Source: an uncultured virus (IMG/VR IMGVR_UViG_3300027815_000008) (lineage: Duplodnaviria > Heunggongvirae > Uroviricota > Caudoviricetes). From it: 20,000 nucleotides of DNA. The notes under the pieces were generated by a model. It was not told the origin of the DNA. It made no database searches and worked only from the letters and a program-made list of their open reading frames with translations. How positions within the stretch are numbered: position 1 is the stretch's first letter; every line of letters starts with the position of its first letter. Where the stretch lies: IMG/VR virus record IMGVR_UViG_3300027815_000008; one strand, given 5' to 3'. The position numbers and the translations under genes are program-made. Shown here piece after piece: positions 9,556-15,824 of the stretch.

Positions 9556-11664
9556 TTAAGTAGCCTTGGATTTGCGGTGATACCTATACCACAGCTTGAA
9601 ATCTGGATCCAAGGCTTCGTGGAACTTGATTACGTTACGGGCGGTTGGCCGCGTACCAGGCAGGTCGGATACGATATCAAAGTCATCCCCCGTAGGGTTC
9701 GTATCCGTACCGTAGAGCAGCAACTGCCCGTCGCGTACCACGTCGATCATCGGCTGCCCATCCGGACCGAATGCCACGTTGTATCCCAAGGGTGCCGTAG
9801 TAGTAACGAAGTTGATGTAGAACGCCGTACCTGCCGGGAACCCGGATACGGCGTGCAGCACACGATCCAGACGTACCGGCCCACGCAGATAGGGAGACAA
9901 GTTATCGAGCGCGTCCCCCATCGTTGCTACAGCAGTCGGCGCTTGCCCGGACTGCGTACCGTCGAAAATACTGGGCCCGTTGTAGGTAACGAGCGGCTCG
10001 GCGCCTGCCGTGCCCTGGATGGTGCCAGAGGCGGTCAAGCTGGTAACGGTCGTTGCAGCTGCGGTAAGCGTGCCAGAGATAGCCGCAGAGCCCGCAGTGA
10101 CCGCCCCGGAGACGTTGACGGCCGCAGTAAAGACGTTGGACCAGCGGTCGGCACTGGCTCCCAGCGTCCGTGTGCTGTCGACCGGAGACAAAGAACTGAT
10201 CTTGCCCAGTACCGTGACGGTGTCGGTCGCGGCGTCCCCCAATGTAGTATTCCCGTTGACGGTGAGGTCAGAGCCAACCTGTACTGAGCCGGTCGAGATG
10301 ATCTGGGCACCGGTAATAGTGCCCCCGGCTGCGATGGCTCCCGTAACGTCTACCGTAACGCCGAAGAACGTGCCCCAACGGCTAGCACTCGCAGTGGCGC
10401 CCAGGTGCCGAGTACCCGTCGGGATCAAGTTCGAGGCAATCGAGGCGGTGACGGTCAACGTGTCCGCTGCAGCGTCACCCAGTATGGTGTTGCCGTTGAC
10501 CGTCAGGTCCGTACCGATGACCGCAGTAGCTGTCGTAACAAGCGTACCGGCAGCAACAGGGCCTGTGGTGGTGAACCCACTAGCAACGATCGGTCCCCCT
10601 GCATTGAATCCGGCAGTGATATCCATTGCGCCGGCATAGATAACGCCCCAACGCAGTACGGCTGAGCCCACGTCTACGGTCGCAGTCGTGAGCGGCAAGA
10701 GAGTACTCGTGAACCGACCCGTCACCGCAATCTGGTCGGCGGTACCATCACCCAGGTTGACGTTCCCGTTCAAGCTCGTAGCCCCGGTAACGGTGAGCGC
10801 ACCTAGAGTGAAAGTACCCGTGCCGTCTACGTTGTTGGCTTGGAAGCTGAACGGCTTGTTGACCTTGAGCTTCTGTGCGCCCGCAGCGTTGTCCCAGAAA
10901 AGGCTGGGGTCAACGGTTACACCCGCCGCCTTCAGCGTTACCGACGGGTTACCTGCACCAGCCGCTGCGTTGACGGTGAAATCTAACGATGCGCTTCCCG
11001 GGATAGATGCGGTCGACAGGATTGATAGAGCATCGACCGTGGTCACCCAAAGCTTGTTCAATCTGGCGCCAGAAGTCCCGACCTCAGCAGTGGCGTCGTT
11101 GAACGTCAGCTTCTGCCCATTACCCAGCTTCACACCAAGGTTGGCCGTAACAAGACCAGAGAAAGCCGCATCGACTAGCGTGGCTCCAGCACCTGCCACG
11201 TTCAGGACACCGTTCACCGTCAGCGTCTTACCGCTTGGAACGGTAGCGCCCCCATTGGCCGAGATAAGCCCTTCCACCGTAAGCGCGCCGGTAGAAGCGA
11301 CGAACGACAGCTTGATGGGATCGGTACCCAGTACACCGGACCGCCAGGTCCAGTTCTGACCTCTGGCTTCAACCCCGGAGTAAACCGTCAGGCTACCAGG
11401 GGTCGTAGCGTCCCCGATCTGCGTATCGCCTTGGAATGAAGCGTTTTGTGCTTCCGAGACCGTGACCTGTTTGAAGACCGTAACACCTTGAACGGTCAGG
11501 TTCCCGCGGACGGTGGCGTTACCCCGCAGGTCAAGGTTGGCGTCATTGGTCACACTATCGGTGCCATGAAGCACGACGGAAATAGGTCCGCCGAAGCCGT
11601 GCGTGCTCCCACCGAGCTCGAGCAGGTTACCCTTGATTAGTAGCGGGTTTACACTGGTTCCCAT
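9556..11664 (-). CDS. Beta-rich fibre/decoration-like protein (702 aa)
   Basis: Start moved to ATG 11664, which has a GAGGAG RBS. Three copies of GNxxLGDxxxDxxxVT/L...LxP...(L/V)GxxxxRW and many GxLTVxG motifs. Confidence 0.75.
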   Translation of the reverse strand: MGTSVNPLLIKGNLLELGGSTHGFGGPISVVLHGTDSVTNDANLDLRGNATVRGNLTVQGVTVFKQVTVSEAQNASFQGDTQIGDATTPGSLTVYSGVEARGQNWTWRSGVLGTDPIKLSFVASTGALTVEGLISANGGATVPSGKTLTVNGVLNVAGAGATLVDAAFSGLVTANLGVKLGNGQKLTFNDATAEVGTSGARLNKLWVTTVDALSILSTASIPGSASLDFTVNAAAGAGNPSVTLKAAGVTVDPSLFWDNAAGAQKLKVNKPFSFQANNVDGTGTFTLGALTVTGATSLNGNVNLGDGTADQIAVTGRFTSTLLPLTTATVDVGSAVLRWGVIYAGAMDITAGFNAGGPIVASGFTTTGPVAAGTLVTTATAVIGTDLTVNGNTILGDAAADTLTVTASIASNLIPTGTRHLGATASASRWGTFFGVTVDVTGAIAAGGTITGAQIISTGSVQVGSDLTVNGNTTLGDAATDTVTVLGKISSLSPVDSTRTLGASADRWSNVFTAAVNVSGAVTAGSAAISGTLTAAATTVTSLTASGTIQGTAGAEPLVTYNGPSIFDGTQSGQAPTAVATMGDALDNLSPYLRGPVRLDRVLHAVSGFPAGTAFYINFVTTTAPLGYNVAFGPDGQPMIDVVRDGQLLLYGTDTNPTGDDFDIVSDLPGTRPTARNVIKFHEALDPDFKLWYRYHRKSKAT

Positions 11665-11829
11665 GCTGCGACTCCTCTTTAGGTTCACCCAAGCTTACCG
11701 CAAGCTTCAGCACCCAGTCCAGGGCCAAAACTGGAAACCAGGGCGCAGAACCGCGCCTCCTTTCCGGTATAAGGACTATAGGAGAGAAATGCTCCTCCGG
11801 CACAGCTCCAGCCGGGCCAAAAAAGGAGC

Positions 11830-11857
11830 CCTGTGCGCTGCAACCCCAGCGCACAGG
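11830..11857. promoter_or_regulatory. Perfect 11-bp inverted repeat in the divergent intergenic region (operator or minus-strand terminator)
   Basis: CCTGTGCGCTG-caaccc-CAGCGCACAGG. An A6 run at 11819-11824 gives a U6 tract 5 nt after the stem on the minus strand. Confidence 0.45.
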
Positions 11858-11900
11858 TCATAATCCCGGCGCCCACGACGCCTACAATATCGAGGGGAGA

Positions 11901-12374
11901 GTGACCATGGCCACCACAACGACAGTAATAGAAACCAGGTTCTTGGTGCGAACCCTGGCCCAGGTGGGCCGGGTTTGTCAGTCCCTGGACCAGGCCCTGG
12001 GCCTGGTATGGAGGTGCCGTGAGGCGCAGGGGTCCACCTCCTGGCACCGGGCCAACAACCTCCTTCAGGAGGTGTTAGGAGCGGCGGCACTGAATGTGAT
12101 CATGCAGGGGTTCAACCCCTGCACCCTCAGGGTAGGACCCGATGAGCTGGTCTATAAGACCGGGTCAGGCATAAGCCTGACCGTGTTGCGGGCGGATGTC
12201 CGCCCGGACCTGTGGAGGGTCGAGATCCACATACCAAGAACTAGAAACCGGAGCGTGAGCCTGGCCCTCTGCCGCTCCCCCGGCGGTTGGAAGGAGGTGT
12301 ACCCCACGCCCGTGGCGTGGGGCACCTCCAGGAAAGAGTACCGGCAGGCACTGCTGCTGCTGCAGCACGCCTAG
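11901..12374 (+). CDS. Hypothetical protein (start GTG 11901 or ATG 11907)
   Basis: Purine-rich GAGGGGAGA RBS, with TACAAT at 11883-11888 just upstream. No family recognised. Confidence 0.65.
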   Translation: MTMATTTTVIETRFLVRTLAQVGRVCQSLDQALGLVWRCREAQGSTSWHRANNLLQEVLGAAALNVIMQGFNPCTLRVGPDELVYKTGSGISLTVLRADVRPDLWRVEIHIPRTRNRSVSLALCRSPGGWKEVYPTPVAWGTSRKEYRQALLLLQHA

Positions 12375-12385
12375 CCCCAAAAGGT

Positions 12386-12676
12386 CCCACCCCCACCGGT
12401 CTATCCGGTGGGAAACTCCAGCAACCTCGACTGGATACCTGGTGGGTTAGAGGATGGTTCGATAGGGCCGTAAGGCCCAGCGGGACGAAGTCAAGCATCC
12501 GTGAGGATGGATTGGCTGTTCCCGCCCGCCCATGGCTCTGCAAGCCAACTGAATTGCAGAGGGTGGTGACCAACACCTGCGTAGTTAGAAATCCTGCGTC
12601 CCCCCAAGACAGCAAACCGCTGTGGGATGGATACAGGTTCGGGCACCGGGTAGCCTAGAAATAGACCCGGCATCTT
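12386..12676 (+). ncRNA. Candidate structured non-coding RNA, family not recognised
   Basis: Intergenic segment with at least seven hand-identified stems, three GNRA tetraloops (GUAA, GUGA, GAAA) and long-range closing helices. See finding. Confidence 0.6.
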
Positions 12677-12697
12677 ACACCAAGGAGGTGATTAAGG

Positions 12698-12988
12698 ATG
12701 AAAGCAATCGAGAGGGCCCTGGAATGGGCCCCCCTCCAGCGTCGATTTGACGCGGAGGGCCGGGAGATCCCCCGCTGGTGGGGGATCACCCGGGCAGGGG
12801 AGCCCATAAAATGGGCTCCCAGACCACGGGGGGTTAACCCCGACCAGGGGGATAGAAACACCCCCTGGTATCAGGCGGAGAGCCACCGTCACGTGGACGG
12901 TGGAGTCCACGTCTTCGGCACGCTGGCCGAGGCGATGGACGCATTCCTGGAGGAGTGCGAGGGGCGATCCCCACTCCCCATCAAGTAA
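12698..12988 (+). CDS. Hypothetical Trp-rich protein (96 aa)
   Basis: Near-perfect RBS AAGGAGGTGAT before ATG; immediately followed by terminator-like hairpins. Confidence 0.8.
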   Translation: MKAIERALEWAPLQRRFDAEGREIPRWWGITRAGEPIKWAPRPRGVNPDQGDRNTPWYQAESHRHVDGGVHVFGTLAEAMDAFLEECEGRSPLPIK

Positions 12989-13041
12989 GCACCCGCCTTA
13001 CGAGGCGGGTGCAGGAGAGGGGCTCAGGCCCCTTCTTCTTT
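12989..13041 (+). terminator. Double hairpin between convergent genes; probable intrinsic terminator
   Basis: GCACCCGCCT-tacg-AGGCGGGTGC (10 bp, UNCG-type loop), then AGGGGC-tcag-GCCCCT followed by TCTTCTTT. Confidence 0.7.
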
Positions 13042-13051
13042 GCCCCTGAAC

Positions 13052-13507
13052 TTAATATGCCCAGAAATCCTCATCCCCGATATCCTCGCTGAAGAATGGG
13101 TCTTCTGGCATGAGGCTTCTCGTGCCCCCCTCATACGCCTTGGCATACCCCGTATCGATCAGCCACTGGTTCACAGAGGTCGTTTCCCCGGGCAGGAAGA
13201 CTTCGGCCAGCGTCCGGCCGTACTTCTCGACCTTCAAGACTTTGATTACTAGATCCTGGCCTGTGATGGTTTTGGCGTCCTCGAACGTCGAGACCTCTGT
13301 CCCTGCCAGCCTGGTGGCCAAGGCTATCGTCGACGCCTTTCCTTTTTTTACTACCTCAGGGTCGCCGCGGATCTCCGGGGCATCGATATGAGCCAGCCGG
13401 ATCATGACTTCCAGAGACAAGTCCATCCACAACCCAACACGGACTCTGATCGTGTCAGCATCGTGGACGTAAAGCAGCGTGGCGTTGTACGTGAAGTTGG
13501 GTTTCAT
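13052..13507 (-). CDS. Staphylococcal-nuclease (thermonuclease/SNase) family protein
   Basis: Motifs VHDADTI, IRLAHIDAPE, EKYGRTLAEV and VNQWLIDTGYAKAYEGG match the SNase catalytic layout. Start set at ATG 13507, just after the upstream stop. Confidence 0.9.
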   Translation of the reverse strand: MKPNFTYNATLLYVHDADTIRVRVGLWMDLSLEVMIRLAHIDAPEIRGDPEVVKKGKASTIALATRLAGTEVSTFEDAKTITGQDLVIKVLKVEKYGRTLAEVFLPGETTSVNQWLIDTGYAKAYEGGTRSLMPEDPFFSEDIGDEDFWAY

Positions 13508-13514
13508 GGGACGG

Positions 13515-13922
13515 CTACTTCCCTTGGTACATGGCATTGGGGGCCTGTCGGGCGTCTTGTTGGAAGCCCCCCTTGATAATGATCGGGGGCCTGCTCTCGG
13601 ATCTTCGCAGCAGAGCCTGAAGATCTTCTTTCATGCTGTGCTGGTCTCTGGCCAGGATCTCGACGCGGGCTTTGAGCTGGCCTACGAGTAAGACATCTCG
13701 AAACCACTCTACAGCTGGATCTTTCAAGAAGCTCCACAGGATGCCTGCCACGATGCCAGCTGCCGTGAGAAGGCCGGTCAAAGCCTTCCATTGCTTTTTC
13801 GCCAAGCTCCAGAGCGTGACGCCCCGGAGCCGTTGAATCAGCTCAGGTAGCTCTTCCAAAGCCTTGAGTTTGTCCTCAACGACCGTAAGCCTGGCGCTGG
13901 CTGTAGATGTTTTGGTTGTCAT
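13515..13922 (-). CDS. Small single-TM coiled-coil membrane protein, holin/XhlA-like architecture
   Basis: Coiled coil (RLTVVEDKLKALEE), hydrophobic segment (ALTGLLTAAGIVAGILWSFL), second coiled coil. The holin-like label is inferred from architecture only. Confidence 0.65.
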   Translation of the reverse strand: MTTKTSTASARLTVVEDKLKALEELPELIQRLRGVTLWSLAKKQWKALTGLLTAAGIVAGILWSFLKDPAVEWFRDVLLVGQLKARVEILARDQHSMKEDLQALLRRSESRPPIIIKGGFQQDARQAPNAMYQGK

Positions 13923-13986: not shown

Positions 13987-14892
13987 CTATCTCCCAGGGC
14001 TTGAAGTGGGACTTGGTGCCTGCCCCACTCGTAAAGCGTCCCGGATCTCCTGGATATCTTTTCTTTGCTGGGCTTGGTTTACTTGATCTAGCTTTTGCTG
14101 GGCCTGGATTCTATCCATCGTAGGTTTCAGGTCTCCTGTGAGTTGCTGTTTTAACCCAGGGATAACTTCGACACTGGATTGGACTTGTTGCAGCGCCTCG
14201 ATTCCAATACTCAAGAGCAACCCAGTGACCCCTACCAGGAAAAGCAATAGTACGAGAATGCAGCCCTTGAGAAACAGACTTGCCTTCGCCCATTGCCGGC
14301 TGGTGACCGTGGACAAGGTCAAGGCTGCTGCGTCCGAGATAGCCGTAGCTGCCTGTGTCTGAGCCGTACTGGCAACCATACAGGCGCTCGCTGCGGCTTT
14401 GCTACAAACCAAGATACCCTCCTCGATCTTGGCTCTGGACACGGTCTCCGAATCCATGTGAGCAACCAAAGTCTCTGCTAGAGCATCAAACTTGGTCTCC
14501 AACCGCCTGAAACCTGTACGTACGCCGGCCTCTCTGAGCAAACCCCAAAGGAAATCCACGAGCTTGGCGGTATCCAAGACATTCTTGGACAAGATGAGCT
14601 GCCCGGGGATCTTGGGGAGAGGGTCCATCCCAGTAACAAAGACGATCCCGATATGGGGGCTATGACTTCGGACCCAATCCGCCAGCGGGGCGCCCCCCAT
14701 CCCCGACATATTATAGTCCGCCAGGATGGCTCCTACAGGGCTGGCGATATCGGTCTGTTCTATCCGACGCTGAGCGGCCTCCCCACTAGGATGGCACTCG
14801 ACCAAGAAGCCCGCTTCGGTAAGCGTCTTGTTCAGCAGGAAAAGATCGTCGGGCTCGTCGTCAACAAGAAGAACCGTCCAACGTGGGATCAC
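13987..14892 (-). CDS. Receiver (REC) domain + transmembrane helix + coiled-coil protein, paralog 2
   Basis: VLLVDDE, ILADYNMSGMGG (D59), VFVTG (T87), ILSK (K103). TM segment GCILVLLLFLVGVTGLLLSIGI. GTG start overlaps the upstream TGA (GTGA). Confidence 0.85.
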   Translation of the reverse strand: MIPRWTVLLVDDEPDDLFLLNKTLTEAGFLVECHPSGEAAQRRIEQTDIASPVGAILADYNMSGMGGAPLADWVRSHSPHIGIVFVTGMDPLPKIPGQLILSKNVLDTAKLVDFLWGLLREAGVRTGFRRLETKFDALAETLVAHMDSETVSRAKIEEGILVCSKAAASACMVASTAQTQAATAISDAAALTLSTVTSRQWAKASLFLKGCILVLLLFLVGVTGLLLSIGIEALQQVQSSVEVIPGLKQQLTGDLKPTMDRIQAQQKLDQVNQAQQRKDIQEIRDALRVGQAPSPTSSPGR

Positions 14893-15824
14893 GGTATTCG
14901 TGGCTTCTTTGGGGGGTTCACCGGTATGGGGCTAGCCCTGGGCGGGGTATGCGGAGGCTCTTGCAAGTGCTCCAGAACTTGCTTGACGTCATCCCTCATC
15001 CGCTGCTGCCCCTCCTGGAATTTCGTCTGCTGTGTTTCGATTTTGTGAATGGCGGGCTTGATGTCCCGCTGGACCTCTTCCTGGATTTTCAAGATATCCT
15101 GGACCTTGGTGTGGGCATCCCTGGCAAAGTACGACCCCAGCATAAAGATGCTCCCGACCAGCCCTGACACGACAACAACGACAACGCTGCCTGCCCCCCG
15201 GGTCAAGGGATCAAGTCGGTCCCACCATCGTTTGGACACGGTTGCTAGAGTTGTCTCCAACAACTCCTTCTTCAAGTCTACGGACATGTCGTGGGCCGTC
15301 TTGGATACGACGCAAGCTTGCGTGGCTGCAGCGCTGCATACAAGTATGGCTTCTTCGACCCGACTAGACGACGCTGCTGCGGCTACAATATGAACTTTCA
15401 GGGTGTCCGAGAGCCCATCGACTTTTGTTCCTAATTGGGTGAACCCTGACTGGACAATGGCAGCTTTAAGGGCTCCCCAAAGGGAGTCCACCAAGGCATC
15501 CATATCAAGTCCGGTTTTGGCCAGAACACGATAGCCCGGCAATACGGGAAGTGGGTCATCCCCTGTGATGAACACGACCCCTATATGCGGACTGTGATTG
15601 CGGGTCCAGTTGGCCAATGCCAGCCCGCTAAGCCCCGGCATATGAAGGTCCGTGACGAGTACGCCTACTGGGTTGTTATGGTCCGCTTGGGCAATACGGG
15701 CTTTGGCAGCTTCTCCCCCCGTATAGCACTCCACCAGGAACCCGGCCCTCGTAAGCCCTGCCTCAAGGACCTGGCACATGCCGGGGTAATCATCCACGAC
15801 CAGGACTGTCCAAGTGTTTTCCAT
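14889..15824 (-). CDS. Receiver (REC) domain + transmembrane helix + coiled-coil protein, paralog 1
   Basis: VLVVDD, LVTDLHMPGLSG (D59), VFITG (T87), VLAK (K103). TM segment GAGSVVVVVVSGLVGSIFMLGSYF. Pro-rich tail. Confidence 0.85.
   Translation of the reverse strand: MENTWTVLVVDDYPGMCQVLEAGLTRAGFLVECYTGGEAAKARIAQADHNNPVGVLVTDLHMPGLSGLALANWTRNHSPHIGVVFITGDDPLPVLPGYRVLAKTGLDMDALVDSLWGALKAAIVQSGFTQLGTKVDGLSDTLKVHIVAAAASSSRVEEAILVCSAAATQACVVSKTAHDMSVDLKKELLETTLATVSKRWWDRLDPLTRGAGSVVVVVVSGLVGSIFMLGSYFARDAHTKVQDILKIQEEVQRDIKPAIHKIETQQTKFQEGQQRMRDDVKQVLEHLQEPPHTPPRASPIPVNPPKKPRIP

Follow-up and report, generated by a model that had tools for sequence, protein, structure and literature searches.

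A hairpin-saturated two-gene cassette around a structured non-coding spacer in a groundwater phage

The stretch of DNA analysed here (20,000 nucleotides (nt) of the IMG/VR record IMGVR_UViG_3300027815_000008, an uncultured virus of the Caudoviricetes; hereafter the window) carries on its plus strand a two-gene cassette at about 11860-13045. The cassette consists of the open reading frame (ORF) orf155, a non-coding spacer, a second ORF, orf96, and terminator hairpins; it is placed between tail-fibre genes and a nuclease/response-regulator block and is oriented opposite to its neighbours. The spacer had been flagged in an earlier note as a candidate RNA of about 300 nt with a ribozyme-like, multi-junction fold. 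The feature is real and unusual, it is unproven as an RNA, and it is better termed part of a hairpin-saturated cassette.

orf155 occupies 11907-12374 of the plus strand, starting at ATG 11907 or GTG 11901 behind the ribosome-binding site GAGGGGAG, and is an orphan packed with perfect hairpins. The flagged spacer follows on the same strand (12375-12697, 323 nt) and reaches from the stop of orf155 at 12374 to the ATG of orf96 at 12698. orf96 (12698-12988, plus strand) is also an orphan; it has the strongest Shine-Dalgarno sequence in the window (AAGGAGGUGA, 12682-12691) and is the most structured segment. The 3' end of the cassette is formed by a hairpin of 10 base pairs (bp) with a UACG loop (12989-13012) and a terminator-like hairpin with a T-rich tail (13018-13033), both on the plus strand. 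At the left edge, upstream of the tail-fibre gene, an 11-bp stem followed by a T run makes a terminator-like hairpin on the minus strand (11830-11857).

Folding and coding signal of the spacer

Taken as RNA, the plus strand of the spacer folds with -137.2 kcal/mol (z = -4.31 against 100 dinucleotide shuffles) and the minus strand with -133.5 kcal/mol (z = -2.87); a repeat with 60 shuffles gave -3.8 and -2.5, respectively, and folding with DNA parameters gave -5.0. Controls of the same length, fifteen segments from other parts of the window folded on both strands, had a mean z of -0.60 (standard deviation (sd) 1.04, minimum -2.76). The plus-strand value of the spacer lies beyond all 30 control values; as a whole, the fold exceeds chance.

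The stretch is indeed non-coding, as had been supposed. G+C is flat by codon phase (P = 0.63), which means that there is no period-3 signal, codon-usage scores are about zero in every frame, and Pfam, PHROGs, NCBIfam and PADLOC returned nothing for the frames over the spacer. Likewise, the impression that the sequence belongs to none of the known RNA families held up. Rfam 15 (4227 models, including transfer RNA (tRNA) and transfer-messenger RNA (tmRNA), RNase P, group I and II introns, riboswitches, small ribozymes, GOLLD, ROOL, OLE and HEARO) gave no match at the gathering score in the whole window, and permissive searches (E ≤ 10 for 12200-12900, E ≤ 1 for 11650-13150) gave none within 12375-12697; the best of their sub-threshold matches scored 21.8 bits, where the gathering score is 41.5. 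ARAGORN found no tRNA or tmRNA genes. No intron model matched even at E ≤ 10, a search that a very divergent group I core might escape. An intron was dropped as an explanation since the reading frames cannot be joined and orf96 starts behind a strong Shine-Dalgarno sequence of its own; for neither ORF was a homologue found that would represent an uninterrupted form. A CRISPR-repeat mimic was also dropped, its sole support being a 14-bit match with E = 5.5.

Local hairpins and the global fold

All complementary segments named in the earlier note are present in the sequence at their coordinates. When 12375-12700 was folded, the local hairpins of the spacer, all on the plus strand, turned out to be robust. 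The two 5' hairpins (12392-12412, 8 bp, and 12417-12435, 5 bp) have pair probabilities of 0.75-0.99. The three central hairpins, with 0.80-0.99, are a GUAA-capped one at 12465-78 (loop 12470-73), a long arm at 12480-12525 with a GUGA loop at 12501-04, and a third at 12536-61. An imperfect long hairpin at about 12588-12640, overlapping an element drawn earlier at 12575-12638, and a GAAA-capped hairpin at 12646-12670 (loop 12658-61) complete the series. According to the predicted folds, the robust object is a row of some eight hairpins, of which three carry GNRA loops.

The helices that were supposed to close these hairpins into junctions are a different matter. CCCACC (12386-91) with GGTGGG (12441-46), the first closing helix, has a pair probability of 0.04, AGGATG (12451-56) with CATCTT (12671-76), the closure of the larger domain, has 0.01, and 12575-79 with 12634-38 has 0.03; a competing 9-bp helix, 12383-91/12562-71, is preferred with 0.96. 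Moreover, the fold shifts with its context. Fifteen extra bases, or DNA parameters, restore the three-way junction of 12386-12446 to the minimum-energy fold, which contains it in two of the four contexts tried, and imposing the first two closing helices costs 4.6 kcal/mol. The closing helices are thus improbable and context-dependent, and the proposed multi-junction architecture is not confirmed by these folds. The same is true for the idea of a bounded unit of about 300 nt, since structure runs past both edges of the spacer.

Six-base complementarities are to be expected in such a sequence: by simple arithmetic about 11 pairs arise by chance in 300 nt. The pseudoknot or switch formerly suggested between AGCCAA and TTGGCT is at this chance level, and a switch made of AGGAUG and CAUCUU was dropped for the same reason. 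Both this and the six-base long-range helices, equally at chance level, would suit the simplest explanation, that the spacer is an ordinary G+C-rich intergenic stretch and its helices are meaningless. A G+C-corrected energy scan of 492 segments of 323 nt on both strands speaks in the same direction, as it puts the flagged segment just 1.7 sd below the trend of the window. This explanation is nevertheless very improbable in view of z-scores of -3.8 to -5.0 against dinucleotide shuffles, beyond all 30 controls, of the enrichment in GNRA loops, and of the position of the spacer inside the most hairpin-rich 1.2 kilobases (kb) of the window.

The loops carry information on the strand. Three of the five tetraloops of the spacer are GNRA loops, compared with 10/236 outside the cassette (Fisher P = 0.001), which agrees with the earlier view that they favour the plus strand. 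In the cassette as a whole, four GNRA loops and one UNCG loop are found among the 15 tetraloops of the plus strand and none among the 13 of the minus strand; the GNRA/UNCG share in the rest of the window is 13/236 (Fisher P = 0.002 against the plus strand of the cassette). G-U wobbles had been quoted in favour of the plus strand as well, but they are evenly spread, with 5/97 pairs in the spacer on the plus and 6/101 on the minus strand.

Could the spacer be a discrete trans-acting RNA or ribozyme of about 300 nt, excised or separately transcribed, with a compact, GNRA-stabilised body of several helices? Three GNRA loops among only five tetraloops in 323 nt, a folding excess biased to the plus strand (z of -4.3 versus -2.9), the lack of a coding signal and of an Rfam match, and a three-way junction that has the minimum energy in half of the contexts would all be in line with such a molecule. 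However, terminator and promoter scans gave the spacer neither signal of its own, its closing helices are unstable across contexts (0.01-0.04), it is the least structured third of the cassette with very few G-U pairs, and no homologue is at hand that would provide covariation or a conserved core. We therefore regard a discrete ribozyme-like RNA, as it was pictured at first, as decidedly unlikely.

Hairpins and coding signal in the flanking ORFs

Structure is stronger on either side of the spacer, where the flanking ORFs fold with z-scores of -5 to -10. The segment 11860-12385, which holds orf155, has a z of -5.87, and 12690-13045, with orf96 and the 3' end, has -10.08 as RNA and -10.1 with DNA parameters. 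The five most over-folded of the 492 segments of the window start at 11921-12721, in the flanks of the spacer. If a perfect hairpin is defined by a stem of at least 6, a loop of 3-9 and nested alternatives counted, 41 of the 84 matches in the window fall inside 11830-13045. The cassette region has 39, compared with 3.8 ± 2.7 (maximum 17) in 200 first-order random sequences. These hairpins disregard the borders between coding and non-coding sequence. No repeated hairpin family was found within 11500-13300; every hairpin of the cassette differs in sequence, and a common protein-binding motif or repeat family is thus absent. Origin from a transposon or a miniature inverted-repeat transposable element (MITE) was dropped because terminal repeats are absent from the cassette.

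Both ORFs have the composition of genes. G+C by codon position is 0.61/0.50/0.81 in orf155 (P = 1e-7) and 0.69/0.52/0.77 in orf96 (P = 1e-3). Their codon scores (0.12 and 0.16) are positive in their own frame only; the 17 neighbouring genes score 0.30-0.49. The cassette is richer in G+C (0.62-0.63) than the sequence alongside (0.55-0.60), and G+C at third codon positions is 0.76-0.80 versus 0.55-0.71 in the 17 neighbouring genes. At the same time, the sequence of both ORFs consists nearly throughout of perfect hairpins with stems of 6-10 bp. The folding z-scores are -4.9 (plus) and -6.3 (minus) for orf155 and -7.8 (plus) and -7.3 (minus) for orf96. Shuffling of synonymous codons, which leaves the residues identical, weakens the folding of the ORFs by 35-38 kcal/mol; the z-scores in this test are -6.6 for orf96 and -5.4 for orf155, compared with -0.6 for the neighbouring nuclease gene as a control. 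Folding hangs on the placement of synonymous codons, and if the ORFs are coding, the hairpins are superimposed on the code. Such an overlap of hairpins and probable code in orf155 and orf96 stands out more than the spacer that had been flagged.

At the protein level the two ORFs stand alone. Neither of them has a match in Pfam, PHROGs, NCBIfam or PADLOC, the ESM Atlas had no usable match for the cassette ORFs, and orf96 matched only itself in 5.8 billion protein clusters. orf155 had a single weak, repeat-boosted match among 1.84 billion proteins: its residues 12-64 are about 30% identical, in five stretches, to repeats of about 63 residues in P0002, a metagenomic protein of 601 amino acids (aa). 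The E value of 4e-9 is boosted by the repetition, and the match is possibly a tail-fibre-type repeat or spurious. Fold models of the ORFs were poor (ESM pLDDT of 0.47 and, for orf96, 0.52; AF2 pLDDT of 53 for orf155).

With this in mind one may ask whether the 1.2 kb form a single giant non-coding RNA in which both ORFs are chance frames of a G+C-rich sequence. ORFs of at least 96 aa occurred in 59%, and of at least 155 aa in 10%, of 2000 random sequences of the same composition; since long chance ORFs are that common, the length of the ORFs says nothing on coding. Four further ORFs of 104-124 aa overlap the cassette region. The two ORFs are orphans with poor fold models, their codon scores are below those of all 17 neighbours, and the folding excess is extreme, all of which would suit such an RNA. 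Yet the period-3 G+C in the frames of the ORFs, which is absent from the spacer, the codon scores that are positive in these frames only, ribosome-binding sites ahead of both ORFs, that of orf96 being the best in the window, and the lack of a match to any large-RNA family argue against it, and we would give a giant non-coding RNA only a slight chance. We regard orf155 and orf96 as probable genes, taken up from a source of higher G+C. Reassignment of a stop codon was considered for orf155 and dropped, as read-through of its TAG adds merely about 32 codons.

The motif GGAGGTG is clustered in this region: six of its ten occurrences in the window, both strands counted, lie within the 680 nt from 12010 to 12690. 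The copies are in part Shine-Dalgarno-like and in part anti-Shine-Dalgarno-like, and pairing between them is possible, as for 12010-16 with 12323-29 or for 12035-41 with 12293-99.

Transcription signals and the start of orf96

Terminator-like hairpins on the plus strand are found after orf96 only, and the terminator scan detected no such site between orf155 and orf96. The 3' end (12989-13045) folds with a z of -6.5 on the plus and -3.5 on the minus strand. A terminator of its own and a deviating composition are traits of a moron, and the cassette shows both, with terminator-like hairpins on the plus strand; its orientation is reversed as well.

The spacer ends in a small hairpin over the start of orf96 (12671-12700, plus strand, -7.2 kcal/mol), in which CAUCUU would pair with AAGGAUG, including the start codon, and CACC with GGUG. 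In the predicted fold, GGUG of the Shine-Dalgarno sequence and the AUG both lie in helices, with an unpaired probability of 0-0.06. The start region of orf96 has -8.5 kcal/mol; the other 17 gene starts of the window range from -2.6 to -11.3 kcal/mol, and several of them also have paired start codons. The suggestion that the spacer is a cis-regulator of the 96-aa gene is plausible by position, but the start codon and part of the Shine-Dalgarno sequence are predicted to be buried no more strongly than the other gene starts. A TGA at 12689-91, two codons ahead of the ATG, closes the frame of orf96.

Searches for relatives

Searches with blastn in distant mode gave no match to 12300-12760 or 11690-13050 among the GenBank phages, nor to 11690-13050 among plasmids. 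Exact patterns of 21 and 18 nt found 0, 2 and 0 loci in IMG/VR, and the two were chance matches with unrelated flanks. A degenerate probe made from the open frame that covers much of the spacer (12287-12658) found nothing in IMG/VR or in the species genome collection, and in the metagenome contigs of the JGI it found a single contig that is identical to the window over 17,714 nt. In the contigs of four sequencing runs, searched at 80% likeness, the same contig was the only one, with no variants or joints. A multi-copy test for hairpins of the REP, BIME or MITE kind gave no copies within 11500-13300 or in phage or plasmid records. The genome of the phage itself was covered, for repeats, by 22.7 kb of a contig of about 196 kb. 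In the part of the literature consulted there is no description of such a hairpin-saturated cassette, which is not proof that none is in print.

Discussion

The spacer may be read as untranslated sequence between the two cistrons of one heavily folded plus-strand mRNA from a moron-like cassette, and not as a free-standing, ribozyme-like RNA. We favour this reading tentatively, with a probability of roughly 0.4. The whole transcript, its coding parts included, would be a nearly unbroken string of Watson-Crick hairpins, which the spacer would continue with shorter, GNRA-capped hairpins and end with the start hairpin over part of the Shine-Dalgarno sequence and the AUG of orf96. It is tempting to speculate that this hairpin armour holds both cistrons together in a compact RNA that resists nucleases and is probably long-lived, and that the structure of the spacer sets the ease with which ribosomes initiate on orf96. 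The helices that begin at 12383-12391 lie within reach of a ribosome that terminates on orf155 at 12374, and this ribosome would free their 5' strand, so that translational coupling to orf155 is possible. We infer all three: transcription as one RNA, a structure that serves stability or translation control, and the coupling.

Several observations weigh against this reading. Both ORFs are orphans with low-confidence fold models, and the case for their coding status is made by composition and ribosome-binding sites alone. No sigma-70-like promoter was found in 11500-13300 by a scan that covers this type alone. The minus-strand terminator-like hairpin at 11830-11857 is oriented such that it would end minus-strand transcripts leaving the cassette ahead of the tail-fibre gene, and it hints at minus-strand transcription, antisense or by read-through, across the cassette. 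The start hairpin of orf96 is weak and within the range of other genes, and translational control is for this reason not specifically indicated. Neither the spacer nor the cassette has a homologue or variant in any of the collections searched, which leaves no covariation to draw on. Two sequencing runs were found to contain DNA of the window, both of groundwater DNA and perhaps its source, with no RNA run among them.

Finally, two properties of the stems weaken the case for RNA in general. The plus-strand stems of the cassette are nearly free of G-U, which makes up 14 of 359 pairs (3.9%) compared with 219 of 1476 (14.8%) in the 15 control segments and about 10-12% in shuffles, and the folding excess has the same strength under DNA parameters and, in the ORFs, differs little between the strands. 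The second property follows from the first, since stems that are almost purely Watson-Crick fold alike on both strands and under both sets of parameters; for the same reason energy cannot separate a structured RNA from single-stranded or palindromic DNA. The hairpins could then act at the level of DNA, as a field of palindromes that fold when the DNA is single-stranded or supercoiled (perhaps at a site of replication, of an injection pause or of recombination), or they could be the neutral product of palindrome-making replication errors, and any RNA would be incidental. That they cross the borders between coding and non-coding sequence would be expected in this case. On the other hand, stable RNA tetraloops are confined to the plus strand, and the 3' untranslated region is plus-biased (-6.5 versus -3.5). 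The hairpins all differ in sequence and thus offer no shared protein-binding motif or repeat family, a reading frame of period-3 composition is preserved in the flanks, and there is no clear skew switch at the cassette. That the hairpins act or arose at the DNA level is, on balance, unlikely. What favours an RNA of the plus strand is two things only, the types of loops and the terminators.

A bolder version may be mentioned, in which the cassette encodes a new kind of dual-function, armoured phage RNA. Synonymous codon choice would maintain its almost complete Watson-Crick folding even within the two reading frames, as a protection against single-strand-specific RNases of host defences or of the phage, and the central 300 nt, rich in GNRA loops, would build a compact tertiary core with an action of its own as decoy, scaffold or ribozyme. 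We consider this a long shot.

Under the preferred reading of a folded two-gene mRNA, the spacer would work most like a structured intercistronic leader. Structured intercistronic and 5'-leader regions set the translation of downstream genes, as in the long-range coupling of MS2-type RNA phages and in the leaders of ribosomal-protein operons. Like these, the spacer is non-coding, lies on the sense strand directly upstream of a strong Shine-Dalgarno sequence, has the start codon of the next gene in a predicted helix, and its upstream helices begin within reach of a ribosome that ends the preceding cistron. Unlike these, it has 323 nt and about eight hairpins, and it occludes the start no more than is seen at other genes; it has no recognised ligand, protein partner or conserved motif, and the coding regions that flank it are even more structured.

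The mRNAs of hok-type toxins are highly folded and long-lived. They share with the cassette that an entire small mRNA, including the coding part, would be compactly folded with the translation start in structure. However, the ORFs of the cassette are not short hydrophobic peptides, and scans of family libraries found no antisense RNA gene or known family for it.

In its dense, short, G+C-rich hairpins with nearly perfect stems the cassette also resembles REP/BIME, MITE-like and mosaic hairpin modules. In contrast to such modules, none of its hairpins recurs in 11500-13300 or in the phage, plasmid, viral and metagenome collections, and hairpins are found inside open reading frames as well. The injection-stop region of phage T5 is a palindrome-rich, non-coding phage DNA, and the likeness lies in about 1 kb of clustered inverted repeats in a phage genome and in a structure that is equally strong under DNA parameters. 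The cassette differs in that it overlaps two frames of coding composition and has plus-strand-specific RNA tetraloops and terminators at its edges.

GOLLD and ROOL are large, ornate RNAs associated with phages or prophages (PMC5737381; bioRxiv 10.1101/2024.12.08.627333). As far as the consulted parts of these two sources go, the phage context, the many hairpins, the GNRA loops and a function that is not established are common to them and the spacer. However, the spacer has no match to their Rfam models, the non-coding part of the cassette is just 323 nt with the rest being of coding-type composition, and there is no family of homologues.

If a plus-strand transcript with these hairpins exists, it would offer a clear example from nature of a DNA-phage mRNA in which nucleic-acid structure has shaped the coding sequence as strongly as the protein has (synonymous-shuffle z-scores of -5 to -7). 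This would bear on how phages protect or time particular messages, and the spacer would rank as a candidate new RNA element acting in cis. The cassette, one orphan sequence of one groundwater phage, is as yet indistinguishable from palindromes at the DNA level and offers no comparative handle; its value is therefore that of a lead and not of an established new RNA class.

The phage and its other genes

The window appears to be part of the genome, probably a large one, of a phage from a groundwater metagenome. Nearly all long ORFs are on the minus strand, and searches of protein clusters and metagenome contigs found the proteins of the window on contigs of about 196 kb. Few families are recognisable: a beta-helix/tail protein, tail-fibre-like segments, a homologue of staphylococcal nuclease and two receiver-domain proteins. 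No Pfam family was assigned to the large structural proteins, and one of them, of 808 aa, matched only itself among the 5.8 billion protein clusters. With the tail fibre, the nuclease or orf96 as protein anchor no relative was found in IMG/VR, and with the response regulator no close relative in the species genome collection. As far as can be read from these sequences, the phage is very isolated. The scan of family libraries found no reverse transcriptase in the window and thus no sign of a diversity-generating retroelement or retron.

To the left of the cassette, the tail-fibre-like gene (9556-11688, minus strand) resembles fibre or baseplate proteins of cyanophages and roseophages in short segments only. 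Its start is probably ATG 11664 with the ribosome-binding site AAAGAGGAG, and not GTG 11688. To the right follow the homologue of staphylococcal nuclease (13052-13537), identified by a family-library match, and two tandem proteins of about 300 aa on the minus strand (13987-15824). Each of the latter has a response-regulator receiver domain at its N terminus and a C-terminal part without a family, and the pair is an unusual cargo for a phage.

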